From positions 13,961-77,960 of the forward strand of contig PYIY01000195.1 of NCBI GenBank assembly GCA_003635195.1: a stretch of 64,000 nt of DNA, written 5' to 3'. The translations under genes were made by a program, and so were the position numbers. The stretch is from Candidatus Poribacteria bacterium (GTDB taxonomy: Bacteria; Poribacteria; WGA-4E; WGA-3G). The notes under the pieces were generated by a model. That model was given only the letters and a program-made list of their open reading frames with translations, was not told the DNA's origin and searched no databases. This document shows, piece by piece, positions 40,232-50,579 of this stretch; the first letter of the stretch is position 1, and every line of letters starts with the position of its first letter.

Positions 40232-41788
40232 ATGAAATTAAGCACTGTCGAAGCTAAAAAACGCCCCTCCTTCAACTATATTGAATATTTTGAAACGCAG
40301 CTCTATTATCAATGCATCACGTGTTCAACGGTTGTAGAACCTGAAATGGGGTACTGTCGAGAATGCAATGCAGAGTTAAATCCAAATAATAGGCAGCAGC
40401 TATTTTGCTATGAGTGCAGAAAGCCAATCATCTACAAAAGAGACTATTTCATAAACAAAAAACACTTTGTCTCACACTATCCTGTTAATTACTTAGCATG
40501 CCAATGTCCAGGAAACCTCTGGATACCATTCATAAAAAATCAGAATTTTAGTGATCCTGCTACAGGATTAGTGAGGATCACAGTAGATAATATGTACATT
40601 TGGACTATTTGCTGTGCCGAATCTTCTCGATATAGCAATAATGAAGATATTTACTTCATTAATTGCCAACAGCAAGAAGATGATCTATTCCTAAAGCCCT
40701 ATATAAGATACAATATAGGAAAGACAAAATTATCTACATCAGAACGTAATGAATTTACTGGTAGATACTATAGAATATGCACGGATGTCATATCGTTAGG
40801 TATCAAATTGGGTATTTTAAGAGAATTAATGCGTGATGAAACATTTGCTAGGCGGGGGTGGGTTCGGTTAGAAAATCGGATACAAGAAATATTAGACTTT
40901 TCTGGAATATACTTTAGTAATGAGTTAATATCTAGCCTATTGGAAAATTGTTTTGCCAGATTACGGAGGCTTTTTAATCCAGCCCCCAAAGATAAAGAGA
41001 ACACTGTTGAACGATACAGAAATGACTTTCTCAAAACTTCTTACCCCAAAACACATAAGTTTGAACGTAAGAAATACGGGATCGCAAAACTAATTGGAAG
41101 GCTGAAAATATTAACAAACAAAAGTATATTACACGACGACATTGATTTTAACAGCAATATTTTCCTTGGAGATTGTCGAACCCTATTCGATTTCTACGAC
41201 GACACAGTTCTGAAAACTATAGATATCCTCAACAAGATGCACCGGTTCAAATTGTTCTTTAATCACGAAGACTCATTAAGGTCCTTAGGTTTACATAATA
41301 CTGGTGGAGAGATAGCACTGGCTTACTTGAGATTGGGAGATGAAGCCTTAACCGCATATAAACAAAAACAAGCACTCGAACTATTACGTTTTGACAACTA
41401 CATTGACAATGGAAACCTATCTCCTGAAGAACGTGAAAGTTATGAAAAGAAAAGAGATATTTATGAACGTAACCTTAACTCCTTCTTTGACCGCTGGATT
41501 ATCTGGGATCACCAAACATCTTTAAATATAATCCTTCCAGACGGTCAACATATTGAGATGCCCTATGGTTTCAAGAGTATGCGCCTCACAAAAACCCATG
41601 ATGGCGATTATATTATTTACATTAAAACCCCGGGTATTACCCTATGTCCTAATTACCGTATAGAGTACTTTGGCAATAACGAAAATTTCGCAAGACAGGT
41701 ATTTAGAGTAATTGATAAACAAAGGTATGAACACGAAACTATAGACTTAAGCAATTTCACATACGATTCCTCACTAACTATATTCTGA
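40232..41788 (+). CDS. Hypothetical protein with N-terminal multi-CxxC zinc-ribbon region, encoded in AT-rich DNA
   Basis: 518-aa ORF, about 36-38% GC against about 50% in the flanks. CITCSTV...CRECNAEL...CYECRKP Cys pairs are present. No recognisable catalytic motif. Confidence 0.5.
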   Translation: MKLSTVEAKKRPSFNYIEYFETQLYYQCITCSTVVEPEMGYCRECNAELNPNNRQQLFCYECRKPIIYKRDYFINKKHFVSHYPVNYLACQCPGNLWIPFIKNQNFSDPATGLVRITVDNMYIWTICCAESSRYSNNEDIYFINCQQQEDDLFLKPYIRYNIGKTKLSTSERNEFTGRYYRICTDVISLGIKLGILRELMRDETFARRGWVRLENRIQEILDFSGIYFSNELISSLLENCFARLRRLFNPAPKDKENTVERYRNDFLKTSYPKTHKFERKKYGIAKLIGRLKILTNKSILHDDIDFNSNIFLGDCRTLFDFYDDTVLKTIDILNKMHRFKLFFNHEDSLRSLGLHNTGGEIALAYLRLGDEALTAYKQKQALELLRFDNYIDNGNLSPEERESYEKKRDIYERNLNSFFDRWIIWDHQTSLNIILPDGQHIEMPYGFKSMRLTKTHDGDYIIYIKTPGITLCPNYRIEYFGNNENFARQVFRVIDKQRYEHETIDLSNFTYDSSLTIF

Positions 41789-42234: not shown

Positions 42235-45200
42235 CTATTGAAAATCAAGCACTTCATCAATCTCTGCCATAATCCGCAGCGTTTCTCCTACTGCAACCAA
42301 AATTCCAGAATACTGCCGCACCTCCGCATGGGTTAACGCCGTGTTTTTTCTATCCTGCAACCACTTCTTACACACCTGATACGCCCCAATCTTATATTCC
42401 CACACCTCAGCAGGTACATCCGTGAAATGTTGATCGTCATTAATCCAAACGTGTCCACCCGCATAGCGAACTTTTGAGACAACGGCATTGCCTTCACCTT
42501 CAAACCGATGTAGCGGTGAAATCTGTACATCTTTCAAAAGATGCCAATCAATCAAATTCTGCCCCAACGCTGCAAGTTTTCGGAAGTATTCAATATCTTG
42601 CGGCAAAGGGATATATGGAAATCCATATTTCAAAAACTCATAGTAACTTTCACGATAGATAGGGCTATAAAGATGGGCGTAGATATAGGCGATAATTTCC
42701 TCTGATGAAACGCCTTGAGGGGGTTTTGATAATGCAGTTTGCGGCAAATCGAATTTTTCTGAGAGCACTTTAAGGAAATCAGGGTTGAAATTATGTTGGC
42801 GTTCTGTTGTCAATTCTGCCCTATTGGGATCCTCATAAATATAGAGCGGGAATACGTGTACAGACTCACTTGATCCACTTGAGAGATAACAATTCTCTGT
42901 AATTTCGTCGGTTATTAAAATATGTTGCCACTGCTTGCCTCCTTTGACTATACGACAGACACAAAGAGCAATATTTTCGTTTAGCAAATGAGGCATAATA
43001 TCATTGCGTGGACTCGTGTGAAATCCGCAGGATCGTCCAGTATAGTAGGTTTTACGAACATCAAAAGGACGGTGTCGAATAGGTACAATATACTGTTTTG
43101 CATTGGAGTGGTCGCGGAGATCTTGTTGTGCCAGATGGACTTTCCAATATCGGTTGTCCAAATCATATTTTTTCTGCACCTCGTTTTCGGAGAGTGACAC
43201 AAAGTTTTGTACAGTCTCGCGTAACGTATTCTCTGTGCGATGAATAGTTACTTCGTTACGTCCGGTGACAATTCCGCTTGAACCGGACTGGAAAATCTCA
43301 TTTAGCTGCCATCCATGTTTGTATATTGCCTCGCGGTTTGGGACAGAATCTTGAGGGACAAAAAGGTAGAGCGGAGATGCGGGATGCAATTCACACCAAT
43401 CAGTTTTTTGGACATCAGTTTCCAAAAGTGTTCTATATTTTTCCTCTCGATTTCCCCACATATCCGCGTAGTAGCATGTTGCTTTGCCCGGAGTGCTGCT
43501 TTCTTTGACGCATAATAGAATCGCAACCCCCACTTCTATGTCAAATACGTTCTGATCCTCTTTTCCATCTGGAATAGCTTCCTCTACTATTATACTGCCG
43601 TGCAAATTAAGTAGGTATATGGAGTCAAAACTGTCTAATAAACTCTGCCGCATCCTACGAAAAGTTAAACCGTCAAGGAAGCTATTATTCACAATGTAAC
43701 CAACAACACCTTCGCCATTTTTATCAATTCGCCACTGTGCCCACCGGATAAACTTAACATAATCGGATTGCAGTGATTTTTTCTGGTCCCAGATCCCCAA
43801 CAGTTGTCCATCTACTGGTTTGTAATCCTCAATGAGCTGTCCAATAAAAGTTGGTTGGTCATCATTATCGCTACTCGGATTTGCCGAGGCTAGGGGATAG
43901 GGTGGATTACCAAGAATGACGAGGAGTGGTTCGTCCCGCTTTACTGAAACCGCTGCATTTGCCTCATCAGAGATAAATCCTGCAAAAGGTAAACGTTGCT
44001 CGCGCTCTATAGGTTCCTCTAACGTATTAGTAAGATAGACGCGGAGACGTTCGGTTGCCTGCCATCCTTGCGCTTGTAGAAACAGACTCAACTTCAGATG
44101 TGCAATCGTATAGGGTGCAACCAACAACTCAAATCCGAAAAGTCGTTTGACCAATTGTGCATTGATATACCGGTTCCAGTCGCCTGTACCGTAGGTCGTT
44201 GTGACGTATTCACGGATGTGGTCAAGTACTGCAAAAAGAAAACCTCCGGTGCCCGTCGCGGGATCAAGAATGAGCGTGTTGTCATCGGAAAGCCCATCAG
44301 ATCTGTTAAGTGCTGTCTTGAGCAAAACATCAACAGATCGAACAATGTAGGAGATAACCTGTGGCGGTGTATAATAGACCCCGCGTTCCACGCGCAGCTG
44401 CGGGTCATATTCAGCAAGAAATGTCTCATAGAAATGGATCACTGGATCTTCAAGATGAGTTCTCGCAATAAACGCCGTGCGAAGCATCTCTGTAGGGACA
44501 TTTTGAAGAAGGTTTGCAATGTCCTCCAAAATATAAGTAATGTTTGCATTAAGATTTGGCGAATCTATTTGGTGGAAAAGTTGTCGCAAAAATGGATTTG
44601 ACTGCGGGAGCGCGCTGGCGGCAGTTTCTCGTGAGAAGTTTGTCGCGTTAGGTAACGCGCAGCGTGCAGCGAAGAGTCCATACGCTAGTGTCTGTGCGTA
44701 CATATCCGCAAACTTGCCAGGAGTCAATGTAGAGAGGAGAAGTTCCTTAAAGGCCGAGAACATCGCGTAGGTGTCGCTGTTTTCATCGGTGAGCCTCGTT
44801 TCGATTTGTGTTTGGAGTTCACGGGTTCGGCGTGCAAGATGCTTCGCGAGTGCCTCCGGAGTGGTGATTTGCATGGAGCCCGCACTGAAAAATCCATCTA
44901 ACAGGCTTTCCAGATTTTCAATTCCGTTGTCAATTAGTGCTATCGCGCGCGATGTCCCATTCGTATATAACCGAAACTCCACGAAATTGGTGAGGATAAA
45001 GTTATCAAGGTTCTCAATAAAACGTTCATTCTGCACCTTGGCGTGCCCAGTGAGTGCATCAAGGTTCCTGCCATAAGCCTCCGCCTCAATATAACCGAGA
45101 GGGAATAGACCTTCTCTGACAACAAAATCCGGTCTGCCGATTTCTAACTGTCGCGGCTCGTGGGTAATCCTGATAGTATATTCTAAAAGTTCAGCGGTCT

Positions 45201-45314
45201 GTTCCAAAAAGTCTTTGAGATGTCCGTGTAAGGAGAGTTCAGCGGTAGCATCGCCCTGTTCTCGGGTCTGTTGGATGTTTTGCCTGTACGTTCTACAAAT
45301 CTGTTGAAATAACA
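42235..45314 (-). CDS. MmeI-family (Type IIL) single-chain restriction-modification enzyme homolog: N-terminal PD-ExK-like domain + N6-adenine DNA methyltransferase + TRD
   Basis: MTase motif I ILDPATGTGGFLFAV and motif IV LGNPPYP are present. The N-terminus GRPDFVVREGLFPLGYIEAEAYGRNLD...LTNFVEFRLY parallels MmeI GFVDLFWPGILLIEMKSRGKDLD...LVCDFQRFRLT (from memory). Start taken as MLFQQIC at 45314 (GGAG SD); the ORF track extends to 45432. Confidence 0.75.
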
Positions 45315-45499
45315 TTAGGCTCCTTTTTAATTCAGATAGTTTTAGAATCGAATATAAATCGCGTTTGTCCTCTCTACTACCAGTACTATTTGTTGAAAAT
45401 GAAAACAGTTGATAATGTTTTGGTAACAACAATACATTAAAACCCTAAGTATGGTAGTGGTATCTGAACGAGCTTTAACTCTGTTCACTGTTAGGAATA

Positions 45500-47449
45500 T
45501 TATCTTCCCCGATTGAGATCTTCAACAGTTTTCTTGATACCTCTTGCAATATTTGTAAATGCCTCATCCTGATTTTCCCATAGCGTCACAGCCTTCACAC
45601 CTCTCGGTAATGCCTGAAGTTTACCAAAGGGTGCCTCTTCCCAATCAACAGGACGCAGTATTATAGGAATTACCCGGGCCTCTCCGACACTGTGTCGTTC
45701 CATAGCACGCTTCATTTCAATATCATAACAATAATCGGATGCAAGGAAATCAGCACTAACAAGCAGAAGTATTATGTGAGCAGTATTCAAGTGTTCATGA
45801 ATCTCTCCTTCCCATTCTCTACCAGCACTTATTTTCCGATCATGCCAATCTGTAATAACTCCCTGTCTTCTCAAAATGGAGAGGTGGTTCTCAAGTTGTT
45901 CTCGTAACTCCTCATCTCTGTGGGAATAAGAATAAAAAAGCTCAACCCCACCCGGTTGCGATCCTGAACCGATTGTTTGATCCTGTTGTTCTTGAATTAA
46001 ATTGGATAAATACTCCCTCTCTGCAATCATTTGGAGAAACGAACCCTCTGGTAATGGAAGAAAAGGATCATCATGTATTGCTTGCATTCTGCGGATGGCG
46101 GCCTCCACTTGTTCACCATGTCGATGACAGACTTTCCAAACTTTCTCCACCTTCTCTTTTTCACTCGTCCCAGGTATATAATCAATGAGATCAATTAACT
46201 CATTGAGCATCTTATAATAAAAATTATCATAATTTAGCGCAGTAAAGTGCTTTGCTTGGCGAACATAATCAATCAGCGTAGTTCTGACTTCATCCTTCCC
46301 AACACCTTCCTTAATAAAATCAAACGTGTAAATACCACTGTCATCTACATCATCTAATTCCGAGCCATAAGCGGCAAATCTTCGATCTATACATTGCGAA
46401 CAACCACCACAATGAGTTGCTTGGCCTGTATGTTGAAGTGTTTGACTGCAAGACACTGTGCTTGTGATCAAATCCTCTCGTCCAGCTTCAGATAGAATCT
46501 GGTAGATTTCTGTTTTGGTTTTCCATAAGAAAGGGGTGGCGATTTTAACTTTCGGTTCATAGATTGTTGCAAAGAAATTCTCAAGACACATTATCGTTTT
46601 TGGATGTGTCGTCCGGCTAGCTCTTGCATTCATCAGATCTTGTCTCTTTGGAAAGTTAATCGAAGTGATTCCATTTTCATAAACAAAAATCTCCCTCTGG
46701 GAAAGAGCATGTGACAAAGCGTAAGCGATAGCAGTATACAAAAAAGAACGAGTTCGTTGCGTTTCCTCCCTCGCTCGAATTTGGCGTAAACTACAATAAA
46801 ATTTGTAATGTCTGATCCGATTCGGATAACGTTGATGAAGTGCTCTAACTAACTGGTCCTGTGTTCTTGCAGTCTCTGGCTGACCAGAACGGTGACTAAT
46901 GAGGCAGAGTTGATCAGAAGAATTTTCAAGACAGTCAACAATCCCAGCCAAGGAATCAAGTCCTCCTGAAAAAAGAATCACTTTTGTATTTTGCTGGGGT
47001 TCAATTTGAAACGTTTCCTGATCAAACAAGTTTGTCGGGTCAGTTGAGTGCCCGGATTGAAAAGAGAAATGATACGTCTGATCGCCGGACATAAAGACGA
47101 GTGTTTCTTTGAGTCTTTCCTTGACATCAGCCCTATCCCAGAAAGCAAAATCTCGAACTTTAATGACAAAGTAAAATGACCTTGCCCAACTATGGGACTC
47201 TACACTGGCTTTATTTCCACGAGAGGTTAACCTATCGGCACAAAAAACATAGGCAGCAATCTCTAACAAATCAAGGATACGATCAGGAAAATGAGATACA
47301 TAGTGTATAAAACTAGGCAGGCCAAGTTTTACATTTGGGATCTTGTTGGAAAATTCTCGATATTCAAGGACTAAATTATCATCTTGAGCCCATTGCTGAG
47401 GTGGATCTGCACCATTACATAGTACAATTCGTGGAGGGACATCTCTCAC
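45500..47449 (-). CDS. Fusion protein: unknown N-terminal domain + QueC-like PP-loop ATP pyrophosphatase domain + C-terminal TIR domain
   Basis: PP-loop KVILFSGGLDSLAGI is present. The QueC-type C-terminal Zn motif reads LWKTKTEIYQIL...STVSCSQTLQHTGQATHCGGCSQCIDRRFA; compare E. coli QueC LMWIDKAETW...[21 protein letters not shown]. The final ~140 aa are a bacterial TIR domain (LFYSYSHRDEE...W...LLLVSADFLASDYCYDIEM with the conserved Glu). Confidence 0.7.
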   Translation of the reverse strand: MRDVPPRIVLCNGADPPQQWAQDDNLVLEYREFSNKIPNVKLGLPSFIHYVSHFPDRILDLLEIAAYVFCADRLTSRGNKASVESHSWARSFYFVIKVRDFAFWDRADVKERLKETLVFMSGDQTYHFSFQSGHSTDPTNLFDQETFQIEPQQNTKVILFSGGLDSLAGIVDCLENSSDQLCLISHRSGQPETARTQDQLVRALHQRYPNRIRHYKFYCSLRQIRAREETQRTRSFLYTAIAYALSHALSQREIFVYENGITSINFPKRQDLMNARASRTTHPKTIMCLENFFATIYEPKVKIATPFLWKTKTEIYQILSEAGREDLITSTVSCSQTLQHTGQATHCGGCSQCIDRRFAAYGSELDDVDDSGIYTFDFIKEGVGKDEVRTTLIDYVRQAKHFTALNYDNFYYKMLNELIDLIDYIPGTSEKEKVEKVWKVCHRHGEQVEAAIRRMQAIHDDPFLPLPEGSFLQMIAEREYLSNLIQEQQDQTIGSGSQPGGVELFYSYSHRDEELREQLENHLSILRRQGVITDWHDRKISAGREWEGEIHEHLNTAHIILLLVSADFLASDYCYDIEMKRAMERHSVGEARVIPIILRPVDWEEAPFGKLQALPRGVKAVTLWENQDEAFTNIARGIKKTVEDLNRGR

Positions 47450-48231
47450 TTCTTACTGCTCTCCCGTTGTAATTCCTCACGCATCTTTCCAAAAGCGTGC
47501 CATAAAAATCCTTGAACCTCTTTTTTGCTAGGAATACCTTTTTTCGTATGTTGATTAAACCAACCTGCTGCGAAAGACTGTGTAATCTTCGCTGTTTCAA
47601 AGGCATTTGAAGAAATAGCATCAATGTGTTTTTCAAGATACTGCCCAAATTTAATTCGTTCATCAATACTACCTAAAGCTGCAGAAATTTCTCTTTCCAA
47701 AAAATACTCTAAATACCCCTGTGTAAATTTTCCGAAAAACAGACGCGATAATTCACAGAATCCCGCACCATTCCCTGCTTTACGCCATACTTCAAAAGGA
47801 TCTTTCAATGAATCCAAAAGACTAAGTGAATTCACGTGATTTTGATCATACCAAATAGAAATTGCTTCACTAGCAGCCTTTTGGGCAATTCCACTATATT
47901 CAAAAGAATCTTTTTGAGATGCAACATAAGCATTGACAGCTTTCGCAAAAGAAAGTGGTGTTGGATTATTAGGAAGTTCAATCCCAATATCCAACAACCA
48001 AACTTGTGGGTTTTCTTCACGCGAAGCAACAGCAAGATTGACTAGGAATTGAAACGTACCCAAAACACCACTATCTCGCTCAATATGACGAAATCGTGAT
48101 CTAACATTCTGAATTGTCTTTTGCGTAATATCCTCGATTTCAGTATCAGATACATGCCTTCCAGCAATCTGTTCAAAAATATCTCGCCACTTTTTCGTTT
48201 GGGGAAGAACAGACATTCGTTCATGACCCAT
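47446..48231 (-). CDS. Hypothetical 261-aa protein translationally coupled to the QueC-TIR gene (ATGA overlap)
   Basis: AT-rich coding ORF with no recognised domain. A possible R-x4-H (RSRFRH) motif is present. Confidence 0.5.
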   Translation of the reverse strand: MGHERMSVLPQTKKWRDIFEQIAGRHVSDTEIEDITQKTIQNVRSRFRHIERDSGVLGTFQFLVNLAVASREENPQVWLLDIGIELPNNPTPLSFAKAVNAYVASQKDSFEYSGIAQKAASEAISIWYDQNHVNSLSLLDSLKDPFEVWRKAGNGAGFCELSRLFFGKFTQGYLEYFLEREISAALGSIDERIKFGQYLEKHIDAISSNAFETAKITQSFAAGWFNQHTKKGIPSKKEVQGFLWHAFGKMREELQRESSKK

Positions 48232-48372
48232 TACTTGATCTCCATATCACAATTTCTTATCGGATTCCCTTATTCCTTGCGTATATTGACAAGGACTTTC
48301 CTTTCTGGCTTTAGCTATCAGAAATCAGAGCCAGTTGTTGACTCCGTGTGGTTCAACAGCATAAGTCCACCT

Positions 48373-49293
48373 TTAATCTTGGTTTTTGACAAGAACTACC
48401 TTAATAGCAGATAAACCTCTATCCGTATGATGGATGTCAAATTTCACTTTTTGACCTTGTTGAAGCAAATTGACTTTTTCATTCAAAATTTGTGACTCAT
48501 GCACAAATATATCCGGATCATGTTCCTCACACGTTATGAAGCCGTACCCTTTGATTGTGTCGAACCATTTTACCTCTCCTTGTGTCCGGATTAAAAGCGG
48601 CGAAATTTCTCTTTCGATCATTTTAACGGCTTTTGAAAATGGAATCTGAAAAAATTCTCTATCCATTCGTATTCGATAATCACTCAGTAGTTTGAAAACG
48701 AGATTTTCTGCCTCTTTGGCATCTTCCACTTCAAAAACTGCTTTTGCAGAATACGGTATTAACACACCTGTTGCTGAGTTTATCTCCTTAACTCTGTCTT
48801 CTACAGAACGAGTAGTCATTCCGATCTTTAGAACATCAGGTTCATCTTTCCTTGACAAAATATACAACCAACCATGTTTCCCCTGAGAGACACGAATTTT
48901 TCTATGATTTTTCCAATGACTAAGGTAGGTCGGAAGGGTCCCGCTAATCAAAGTCCCACGTATCAAAAGTGCTTGTTCAAAATCACGTCCCTTTAGACTT
49001 TCCCGGAGCTTAACTAATAGGGAAACAATGGAATTCATTTCACTTCTAGGCGGATGGCCAAGTCTATCATAGACAGTAAACCAATTCCATTGGTCTTTCC
49101 TTAATGACCGATTAAACATACCTTTCAGTTCTGAAATAGCATCCAAATCTACCTGGTCTGGAGGAATTCCATCACTTAAAAAAAGAGATACAACATCTAC
49201 GGCATTATCAAAACGTCTTCTCATAGTTACCGACAAATCTGACATTCCAAATCCATATTTATGTATAGTCATCGGCGTTATCTTCTTTATCAA
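48373..49293 (-). CDS. T5orf172/MUG113 (GIY-YIG superfamily) domain protein with C-terminal cold-shock (CspA-like S1) DNA-binding domain
   Basis: GWLYILSRKDEPDVLKIGMTTRSVEDRVKEINSATGVLIPY...REFF matches T5orf172. The C-terminal GEVKWFDTIKGYGFITCEEHDPDIFVHESQI...GQKVKFDI is a cold-shock domain. Confidence 0.65.
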   Translation of the reverse strand: MIKKITPMTIHKYGFGMSDLSVTMRRRFDNAVDVVSLFLSDGIPPDQVDLDAISELKGMFNRSLRKDQWNWFTVYDRLGHPPRSEMNSIVSLLVKLRESLKGRDFEQALLIRGTLISGTLPTYLSHWKNHRKIRVSQGKHGWLYILSRKDEPDVLKIGMTTRSVEDRVKEINSATGVLIPYSAKAVFEVEDAKEAENLVFKLLSDYRIRMDREFFQIPFSKAVKMIEREISPLLIRTQGEVKWFDTIKGYGFITCEEHDPDIFVHESQILNEKVNLLQQGQKVKFDIHHTDRGLSAIKVVLVKNQD

Positions 49294-49946: not shown

Positions 49947-50579
49947 TCAAAAAAGGGTGAGTCTCGGTGTTTCGGATGCGTCTTGTAGTTTTTGTGCTGC
50001 CTCGGCAATATCATCAACGAGGATTTGACGCATTGCGGTGAAATCCTCACCTTCTTGTCGTAGGATATAAGCCGGGTTAAACGTTGCCATAGCAAAGGGT
50101 GCGTACTGGGTATCTGTAAACCAGATGCCGCGTTCTTCCGTGATGCGGAAACCTCTGTGAATCAGCACTTTCGCTGCGGGTGCACCCATGCAGAGAATCA
50201 CCGAAGGTTGTATGAGGGTGAGCTCTCCATCAAGCCATTTGGAGCAGGCTTTAATCTCTGATGCTTTCGGTGGGCGGTTTTTCAATACACCCCCTTTAAG
50301 CCCTGCTGCTCGGCACTTAATAATGTTGGTGAGCCAGATGTCCCTGCGCGTTAAGTCGTTTATTGTCAGCACTTCATCAAGCAAATCCCCAGTAGGTCCT
50401 GAAAACGGCAATGTTGTGTGATTATCTGCAGCGGAGGGTCCCTCTGCAACAAGTACCAATTTCGCAGCGGCATCCCCACTGCCGAAAACGACGTTCGCAC
50501 GGGTTTTCGCTAAGTCACAATCCGTACAAACGCTGGCGCGCGCTTTGAGAGTGTGCATTTGTGTATGAACAGTGCTCAT
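49947..50579 (-). CDS. Uracil-DNA glycosylase, family 4-like
   Basis: CTDCDLAKTRANVVFGSGDAAAKLVLVAEGPSAADNHTTLPFSGPTGDLL matches the family-4 UDG N-terminal consensus (C..C.L...R...VfG.G....lm.vGEaPG...d..G.PF.G..G.LL). Confidence 0.75.
   Translation of the reverse strand: MSTVHTQMHTLKARASVCTDCDLAKTRANVVFGSGDAAAKLVLVAEGPSAADNHTTLPFSGPTGDLLDEVLTINDLTRRDIWLTNIIKCRAAGLKGGVLKNRPPKASEIKACSKWLDGELTLIQPSVILCMGAPAAKVLIHRGFRITEERGIWFTDTQYAPFAMATFNPAYILRQEGEDFTAMRQILVDDIAEAAQKLQDASETPRLTLF

Follow-up and report, generated by a model that had tools for sequence, protein, structure and literature searches.

QatABCD (Gao et al. 2020; PDB entries 9y01/9y02, 9vlk, and 9zee) and Type IV CBASS are the described defence systems closest to the locus considered here, a two-gene unit found in a stretch of 64,000 nucleotides (the window) from a Candidatus Poribacteria bacterium (GenBank assembly GCA_003635195.1, contig PYIY01000195.1, positions 13,961 to 77,960 of the forward strand). 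The first gene of the unit encodes a protein of 261 amino acids (hereafter B), and the second one a protein of 649 amino acids (hereafter C), in which a QatC-like enzyme of the QueC family is fused to a TIR domain. In the canonical Qat system, Met1 of QatB is removed and its Gly2 lies in the active site of QatC; a G2D substitution, an N-terminal tag, or the deletion of the Pro/Trp stretch of QatB abolishes defence, and QatB and QatC alone protect against some phages (PMC13279940, PMC13376578, and PMC13639016, three structural papers from 2026 that leave open both the reaction of QatC and how the modification of QatB stops the phage).

In Type IV CBASS, the pair Cap9–CdnD (Wassarman et al. 2025; PDB 9NTO) exemplifies a related strategy, in which a PP-loop enzyme of the QueC family targets the amine of Gly2 in a partner encoded alongside it. 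The N-terminal tail of the partner enters the active site of the enzyme, and its modification controls the immune effector pathway; B and C are proposed to work alike. Unlike Cap9, which is minimal, C is a QatC-type protein with large extensions and with an S/T-x-T motif replacing the Tyr/Asp residues that bind 7-carboxy-7-deazaguanine (CDG). Furthermore, unlike Type IV CBASS, the B–C unit comes without a CD-NTase, Cap10, or a cyclic-nucleotide receptor. B has no CD-NTase match in Pfam or PADLOC and, contrary to CdnD, is a helical protein.

The resemblance to QatABCD is closer. In both cases a small gene for a helical protein lies directly upstream of the QueC-family gene, and C holds all the QatC signatures and the full QatC fold with both of its extensions. 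B and QatB both start with an invariant Met-Gly and hold conserved Pro and Trp residues further on, and they share a disordered tail and an all-alpha body, both of them predicted in the case of B. However, unlike QatABCD, the B–C loci lack QatA (a KAP NTPase) and QatD (a TatD protein), and their QatC-like protein bears a fused effector, either a TIR domain or a restriction endonuclease (REase). Searches of the full-text literature yielded no account of a fusion of QueC or QatC with TIR or DpnII-MboI domains, or of a ‘Qat-like’ system with two genes. According to a 2026 survey of the QueC family, qatA or qatD neighbours accompany only ~1/3 of the genes of the QatC cluster, the rest being left undiscussed (PMC13329287). 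The B–C unit is probably a previously undescribed variant of the Qat anti-phage system. The complete reading preferred here, namely that B is the equivalent of QatB, that its Gly2 is modified in the active site of C, that this modification controls the TIR domain, and that both genes form a two-gene Qat-like anti-phage system, is put forward with moderate confidence.

An overlapping gene pair spread over many phyla

B and C are encoded by an obligate, translationally overlapping gene pair. Homologues of B number 1323 at E ≤ 1e-3 in a collection of 5.8 billion proteins, and a profile search with B returned 979 clusters at 50% identity. The survey of their loci, restricted to one genome per species, comprises 80 loci from ~20 phyla, including Poribacteria, Chloroflexota/Dehalococcoidia, Bacteroidota, Verrucomicrobiota, Latescibacterota, Armatimonadota, Planctomycetota (Brocadia), Desulfobacterota, and Nitrospirota, together with Ignavibacteriota, Omnitrophota, Actinomycetota, Gallionella, a metagenome-assembled genome (MAG) of Clostridiaceae, a MAG of the candidate phyla radiation, and one bin labelled as an archaeon. 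In 69 of these 80 loci, B is followed by an intact QatC-like gene starting at its stop codon, while another eight have a QatC-like gene that carries a frameshift, is truncated, or runs into the contig end. The contig ends just after B in two further loci, and only in the last one, where B itself is a degraded fragment, is there no QatC-like gene. A lack of conservation next to QueC–TIR homologues, contemplated in the preliminary description of the window (made from its sequence alone), is therefore not what is observed, since 78 loci have room downstream of B and the QatC-like gene comes directly after it in 77 of them. B is almost certainly a dedicated partner of C.

Individual loci depart from this arrangement by damage to the second gene. 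The QatC-like gene is frameshifted, split, or fragmentary in loci L045 (where ~3 kb are inserted), L034, L093, L094, L048, L096, and L097, and such broken genes are consistent with the frequent inactivation of a toxic system.

Regarding the junction, both genes overlap by 4 nt in 43 of the 69 intact pairs and by 8 nt in 17, and the annotated canonical qatB–qatC junctions on plasmids likewise overlap by 4 or 8 nt. The overlap of 4 nt ascribed to the window at the outset holds, but the tetranucleotide is GTGA and not the ATGA that had been reported. ATGA is nevertheless the typical junction of the family, given that the QatC-like gene starts with ATG in 56 of the 69 homologous pairs, unlike in the window, where no in-frame ATG lies near the GTG start of the 649-aa gene. 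The N-terminus of B (MGHERMSVLPQTKKW) is unambiguous, because the ATG at position 48231 is the first possible start past the upstream stop. On the 5′ side, a terminator-like hairpin recognized by its sequence pattern is likely to mark the boundary of the two-gene unit.

The neighbours of the pair vary from locus to locus, and include transposases, SIR2, type III restriction-modification, ThiF/multi-ubiquitin, and housekeeping genes. Searches by phmmer with four canonical QatA and five canonical QatD sequences found neither of these proteins within ±6 kb in the 80 loci, nor in the 36–52 kb region of the window. Because the flanking genes differ between loci and neither QatA nor QatD lies within this distance, the unit consists of two genes. 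With respect to mobile genomes, B is absent from 50,697 phage records and was found in one of 72,556 plasmids (from Leptospira noguchii), 144 of the other plasmid matches being of the canonical QatC type. The family occurs mainly in uncultivated lineages, and the screens centred on cultured bacteria may have missed the B–C pair because B is rare on plasmids and absent from phage records.

The description of B as a protein with no recognisable domain stands, as scans against Pfam, NCBIfam, PHROGs, and PADLOC matched no model, the only hit being a chance match at 0.01 to a Type I specificity model. Searches of the PDB sequences with B alone and with a 25-sequence profile returned no match, and an identical protein from a Candidatus Poribacteria MAG bears the annotation ‘hypothetical’. 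The absence of family matches, together with the position of the gene in a low-GC defence island, also speaks against the housekeeping protein that the preliminary description had kept in view. More generally, it is highly improbable that B is an unrelated enzyme or housekeeping protein, such as a HEPN nuclease, lying next to the QueC–TIR gene by chance. One JGI record labels a homologue of B (P0087) as ‘HEPN domain-containing protein’; this reading is opposed, however, by the adjacency to a QatC-like gene in nearly every locus across ~20 phyla, by the lack of Pfam or NCBIfam matches, and by the patchy, island-like distribution of the family. HEPN proteins are characterized by a conserved Rx4-6H catalytic motif in a four-helix bundle. 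B holds no such motif, its only (near-)invariant His is H3, and no HEPN family appears among the Pfam and PADLOC results, so that the HEPN homology considered initially was rejected. Nothing indicated a component of an Abc three-component system either, although no search aimed at one was made.

A QatC-type enzyme with an exchangeable effector

C combines a complete PP-loop enzyme of the QatC type, its catalytic motifs intact, with an equally intact TIR domain. The identification of the downstream product as a QueC-family protein plus a TIR domain, already made in the preliminary description, is borne out by matches in Pfam, PADLOC, NCBIfam, and the PDB. The similarity to the QatC model of PADLOC extends over residues ~56–381, and the QatC chains 9vlk and 9zee match C at E values of 1e-23 to 1e-22. 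Since the score against the NCBIfam QatC model (198 bits) falls under the equivalog cut-off of 280, the QatC-like region of C is a divergent QatC subfamily. This region shows 56–60% identity to the REase-fused members of the family, and only 24–26% to canonical QatC. The AlphaFold2 (AF2) model of C has a predicted local distance difference test score (pLDDT) of 83 and aligns with the whole of QatC 9y01_B over 471 columns, with a template modelling score (TM) of 0.75 normalised by the target and an E value of 3.4e-18. Because the model spans the whole of that chain, the N- and C-terminal extensions specific to QatC are present in C. Residues 482–500 drop below a pLDDT of 50, and are followed by the TIR fold.

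An alignment of 74 family members with seven annotated canonical QatC proteins reveals the conservation of the active site. Within the PP-loop motif SGGxDS, all residues but x are shared without exception by the 74 members and the seven canonical proteins. Position 278 is occupied by Ser in 66 members and by Thr in the other eight, canonical QatC reading T-R-T-T-H-P at this site, and R279, T280, H282, and P283 are invariant in all 74. The same holds for the four zinc-binding cysteines, which are also found in canonical QatC. In QatC, the PP-loop motif is essential, and so is the Thr pair T278-x-T280, which replaces the CDG-binding Tyr/Asp of QueC and Cap9 (PMC13279940). The motifs described for the QatC cluster (PMC13329287) can be read in C as well, namely D-x4-R...WxR, RxRxF, ENG, HP, and P-x4-TK.

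Close to the active site, C holds five family-invariant residues (R276, K284, T285, Q352, and D355; ~46385–46624), where canonical QatC has L/N, an aromatic residue, another aromatic residue, P, and I, respectively. Judging from the sequences, these differences may co-vary with the tail of the partner, which reads G-H-x-R in B and G-T-S in QatB. The Gly-His N-terminus and the altered residues R276, K284/T285, Q352, and D355 could even mean that the adduct differs from 7-deazaguanine.

The C-terminal domain varies among the partners of B. When classes were assigned from the last 125 residues of the 69 intact proteins, a DpnII-MboI REase was found in 51 by Pfam (53 by a family-specific search), a TIR domain in 11, and a short helix-turn-helix (HTH)-like tail, with neither TIR nor REase, in five (L066, L073, L078, L082, and L092). 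Most of the C-terminal fragments of the REase type show a PD...ExK-like pattern, which is approximate, since shared upstream sequence confounded the grouping. In the 73 homologues of the TIR type, the motif S-x-Y-C-x3-E578 never varies, and the Foldseek matches of the TIR domain of C include SARM1, plant TIRs, and Cat1. In a neighbour-joining tree built from the QatC-like region alone, the TIR forms make up two clades, one from Poribacteria (10 members) and the other from Armatimonadota/Zipacnadia (three members), and the common ancestor of both clades also covers 24 non-TIR members, nearly all of them REase forms.

A chassis that stays constant while its toxic domains are exchanged usually marks a defence system. 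Examples among defence proteins whose TIR or nuclease modules are exchangeable are Thoeris, formed by the TIR protein ThsB and the effector ThsA (SIR2/SLOG or Macro), and the TIR-APAZ proteins of SPARTA. Like the ThsB-type TIR and TIR-APAZ, the TIR domain of C is of the defence type, conserves the catalytic Glu, and is placed terminally on a sensor or regulator chassis; as in these exchangeable-effector proteins, it alternates with a nuclease domain in the relatives of C. Unlike in Thoeris, neither a ThsA-type match nor any other signal-receptor protein was found among the neighbouring open reading frames (ORFs) of the window that were scanned, and the TIR domain is fused to a PP-loop protein-modifying enzyme. 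The sensing or regulatory part of the system is B plus the QatC-like chassis, and anti-phage defence is very likely the role of the pair.

The small upstream gene overlapping a toxin-bearing one is also the typical layout of toxin–antitoxin systems, and B could accordingly be regarded as an antitoxin-like immunity protein that neutralises the TIR domain (or the REase) directly, in the style of type II systems, with some other role for the QatC-like region. This explanation is improbable, however, because members of the B family that are 40–55% identical to B of the window are paired with effectors of two unrelated folds, and also with forms that have no effector. What B co-varies with is thus the QatC-like chassis, not the toxin. 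Moreover, its conserved feature is a QatB-like Met-Gly tail, and QatB is its only fold match.

Two of the loci with HTH-like tails deserve separate mention. In L073 (1310–6737) and L082 (6780–12213), a tyrosine integrase and a DnaG-primase/AAA_25 helicase-winged HTH gene lie directly after the partner gene. This arrangement suggests that the effector domain was replaced upon the insertion of a mobile element into the 3′ end of the partner gene.

The N-terminal tail of B and its proposed modification

The invariant feature of B is its Met-Gly tail. In an alignment of 70 sequences, with identities down to 24%, the most conserved columns are M1, G2, H3, R5, L9, P10, and W15. They define the motif M-G-H-x-R-φ-G-x-L-P-[KR]-[TS]-x-x-W, in which G2, H3, P10, and W15 reach ~100%, R5 98%, and L9 96%. 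The protein starts with MGH in 211 of the 223 full-length members; the remainder are mostly explained by GTG starts or by wrongly called starts, with an MGH further inside. Canonical QatB, in turn, starts with MGTS in 113 of 114 sequences, followed by ...SPLVPxW, and both the MGTS motif and the Pro/Trp stretch are essential in QatB. The AF2 model of B (pLDDT 89, predicted TM score 0.88) is all-alpha, with 11 helices, whereas residues 1–10 fall below a pLDDT of 50 and the stretch predicted as unstructured comprises ~10–14 residues. The best structural match of this model is QatB 9y01_A, a globular protein of ten helices, also all-alpha, with a probability of 0.96 and a TM of 0.44/0.51, which is weak; all other PDB matches stay at a TM of 0.28 or less, and nothing above 0.29 was retrieved from the viral structures of BFVD. 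The constant pairing, the QatC-like nature of the partner, the Met-Gly tail, and the fold match to QatB all support the analogy drawn at the outset, in which B serves the QueC-like enzyme as substrate or regulator. B is treated here as the functional and positional equivalent of QatB.

Several observations, however, weigh against such a reading. A profile comparison with hhalign, in which the B alignment was set against 26 aligned QatB sequences, gave a probability of 0.3% and does not support remote homology to QatB. Reciprocal searches of B and QatB with hidden Markov models were not significant (E > 0.02 in databases of only ~130–270 sequences), scans of B against PADLOC and against NCBIfam, which includes a model naming QatB in the annotation of the Prokaryotic Genome Annotation Pipeline (PGAP), gave no QatB match at E ≤ 1, and the B profile found no match among the PDB sequences. 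The Pfam family PF28083 (QatB) is recorded for the QatB homologues listed, and for none of the B homologues listed. At the level of structure, the Foldseek E value for QatB against the B model is only 0.25, with a root-mean-square deviation of 7.9 Å. The tail of B measures ~14 residues, compared to 30–90 in QatB, and its residues 3–4 are H-x and not T-S, so the start reads MGH-x-R instead of MGTS, with no detectable sequence similarity between both proteins. In addition, the reaction of canonical QatC is itself only partly established: the NDG peptide is seen at low stoichiometry, and QatC is devoid of the Tyr/Asp that recognize CDG. By sequence B is not a QatB, although it may be a very distant homologue.

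Some of these points would fit equally well an alternative in which no covalent modification takes place. In this alternative, B binds the QatC-like protein as a sensor or regulator, its N-terminus acting only as a pseudo-substrate plug or as a docking peptide, and a phage factor displaces or binds B and thereby releases the effector. The pairing of B with C and the conserved tail are explained to the same extent, the 14-residue tail and His3 differ from QatB, and the catalytic activity of canonical QatC could not be reconstituted in vitro (PMC13279940). Nevertheless, the SGGxDS motif, the T280 site, and the zinc site do not vary among the 74 members, which would be difficult to account for in a protein devoid of catalysis, and an invariant Gly2 is the signature of an amine acceptor exposed by the removal of Met. 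A plug or docking peptide is therefore considered unlikely, while Gly2 of B is probably a covalent acceptor, by analogy with QatB and CdnD, a point held slightly more firmly than the complete reading.

Under the preferred reading, in which B is modified by C, both proteins would be made together from their overlapping genes and would associate, as QatB and QatC do in their 1:1 complex, by contacts between the helical body of B and the extensions of C that are specific to QatC. Met1 of B would then be removed, and Gly2 of the tail G-H-x-R...L-P...W would be threaded into the PP-loop site of C, as in QatB–QatC and CdnD–Cap9. C would use ATP to adenylate a carboxylate co-substrate (7-carboxy-7-deazaguanine or some other acid) and transfer it to the amine of Gly2. 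Finally, the modification state of B would switch the fused effector, which in the window would involve NAD+ cleavage by the TIR domain, probably upon its oligomerisation, and abortive infection. Such a modification may either prime the system or fire it.

More broadly, the combination of B with a QatC-like–effector fusion could represent a distinct, widespread, and unnamed ‘minimal Qat’, in which the ATP-dependent conjugation of the N-terminus of a helical partner serves as a general switch for interchangeable suicide effectors (a TIR NADase or a PD-(D/E)xK nuclease), a generalization that falls somewhat short of an even chance. If it is true, the QatB–QatC core of QatABCD would be a sensor and licensing module and not a killing device. 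The swapping of effectors likewise argues for the QatBC core as a regulatory switch. A fused effector also provides modules of the QatB/QatC type with an explicit and easily measured output, and the cleavage of NAD+ by the TIR domain or of DNA by the REase could report QatC-type activation in vitro, which has so far been impossible for canonical QatC. The B–C family extends Qat-like immunity to many uncultivated phyla, among them Poribacteria, Chloroflexota, Latescibacterota, Verrucomicrobiota, and Bacteroidota, in which the models for canonical QatABCD give no match, and a family of B with >1000 members and no Pfam model recorded could be named by annotation pipelines.

The low-GC island around the pair

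The guanine-plus-cytosine (GC) content of the window is 0.39–0.40 at 46–50 kb and ~0.48 elsewhere, in agreement with the AT-rich surroundings noted for B in the preliminary description. A GC content of 0.37–0.45 extends over ~38–50 kb, forming an island between the cytochrome b/Rieske genes (~36–38.5 kb) and a UDG-family gene (49947..50579), and a gene for a LamG-like protein is also found in it. The coordinates of the features of the unit and of its neighbours are compiled in Table 1.

Table 1. Features of the B–C unit and neighbouring genes, ordered by window position.
Feature	Position	Strand	Evidence and remarks
518-aa ORF, zinc-ribbon-like	40232-41788	+	At the GC minimum of the window (0.37); sole match a weak double zinc-ribbon; no PADLOC match
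1065-aa Type IIG/ISP-like methyltransferase-specificity protein	42235-45432	-	N6_Mtase + Type_ISP_C 1.5e-76; PADLOC REase_MTase_IIG 4.5e-240
Gene for C, 649-aa QatC-like-TIR fusion	45500..47449	-	PADLOC QatC 3e-50; ThsB-type TIR 5e-64; NCBIfam QatC 198 bits; PDB QatC chains
TIR effector domain, residues 501-649, with S571-x-Y-C-x3-E578 motif	45503..45949	-	Pfam TIR_2 1.9e-14; PADLOC ThsB1 5e-64
Codon of putative catalytic Glu578 of TIR	45716..45718	-	Conservation of E578
Predicted disordered linker between QatC-like region and TIR, residues 482-500	45950..46006	-	pLDDT <50; similarity to REase-fused homologues stops at ~residue 485
QatC-like region, residues 1-481 (N-terminal extension, QueC/PP-loop core, C-terminal helical extension)	46007..47449	-	AF2 model compared with 9y01_B
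Zinc-binding cysteine cluster C334...C347-G-x-C350-x-x-C353-x-D-R-R	46391..46450	-	Family alignment
S-R-T-T-H-P, residues 278-283, equivalent of the QatC T278-x-T280 substrate-site motif	46601..46618	-	Family alignment
SGGLDS PP-loop (ATP pyrophosphatase motif), residues 161-166	46952..46969	-	Family alignment
GTGA junction, stop of B (TGA, 47448..47446) overlapping the GTG start of the QatC-TIR gene	47446..47449	-	4-nt overlap
Gene for B, QatB-like partner (261 aa)	47446..48231	-	ATG start, TGA stop; 1323 homologues; AF2 model; best-TM PDB match QatB 9y01_A
GGGAGAG Shine-Dalgarno-like site inside the 3' end of B	47459..47465	-	9 nt upstream of the QatC-TIR GTG; read from the sequence
Codons 1-15 of B, MGHERMSVLPQTKKW	48187..48231	-	Family motif; proposed tail entering the QatC-like active site, with Gly2 as proposed acceptor after Met removal
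GGAG Shine-Dalgarno-like site (GGAG(A))	48240..48243	-	8 nt upstream of the B ATG; read from the sequence
Terminator-like hairpin between the T5orf172-CSD gene and B	48326..48346	-	Consensus scan; pattern match only
306-aa T5orf172/MUG113 (GIY-YIG-like) + C-terminal cold-shock domain (CSD) fusion	48373-49293	-	PADLOC PDC-S57-like; gene upstream of B

Among the neighbours, the Type IIG/ISP-like gene starts 67 nt downstream of the stop of the QatC–TIR gene, with a TTG start according to the ORF finder, and the library scans reported no nuclease or helicase domain in the N-terminus of its product. The T5orf172-CSD protein resembles the PADLOC candidate PDC-S57 and the CSD effector of retron Se72, and its gene is probably a separate single-gene defence candidate.

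Other B–C loci adjoin SIR2 or type III restriction-modification genes. In L007 (1–1256), a locus of the REase type, the neighbours of the pair are a restriction-modification system of type III and a set of ThiF/Multi_ubiq genes that resembles a bacterial defence module for ubiquitin-like conjugation, a further sign of residence in defence islands.

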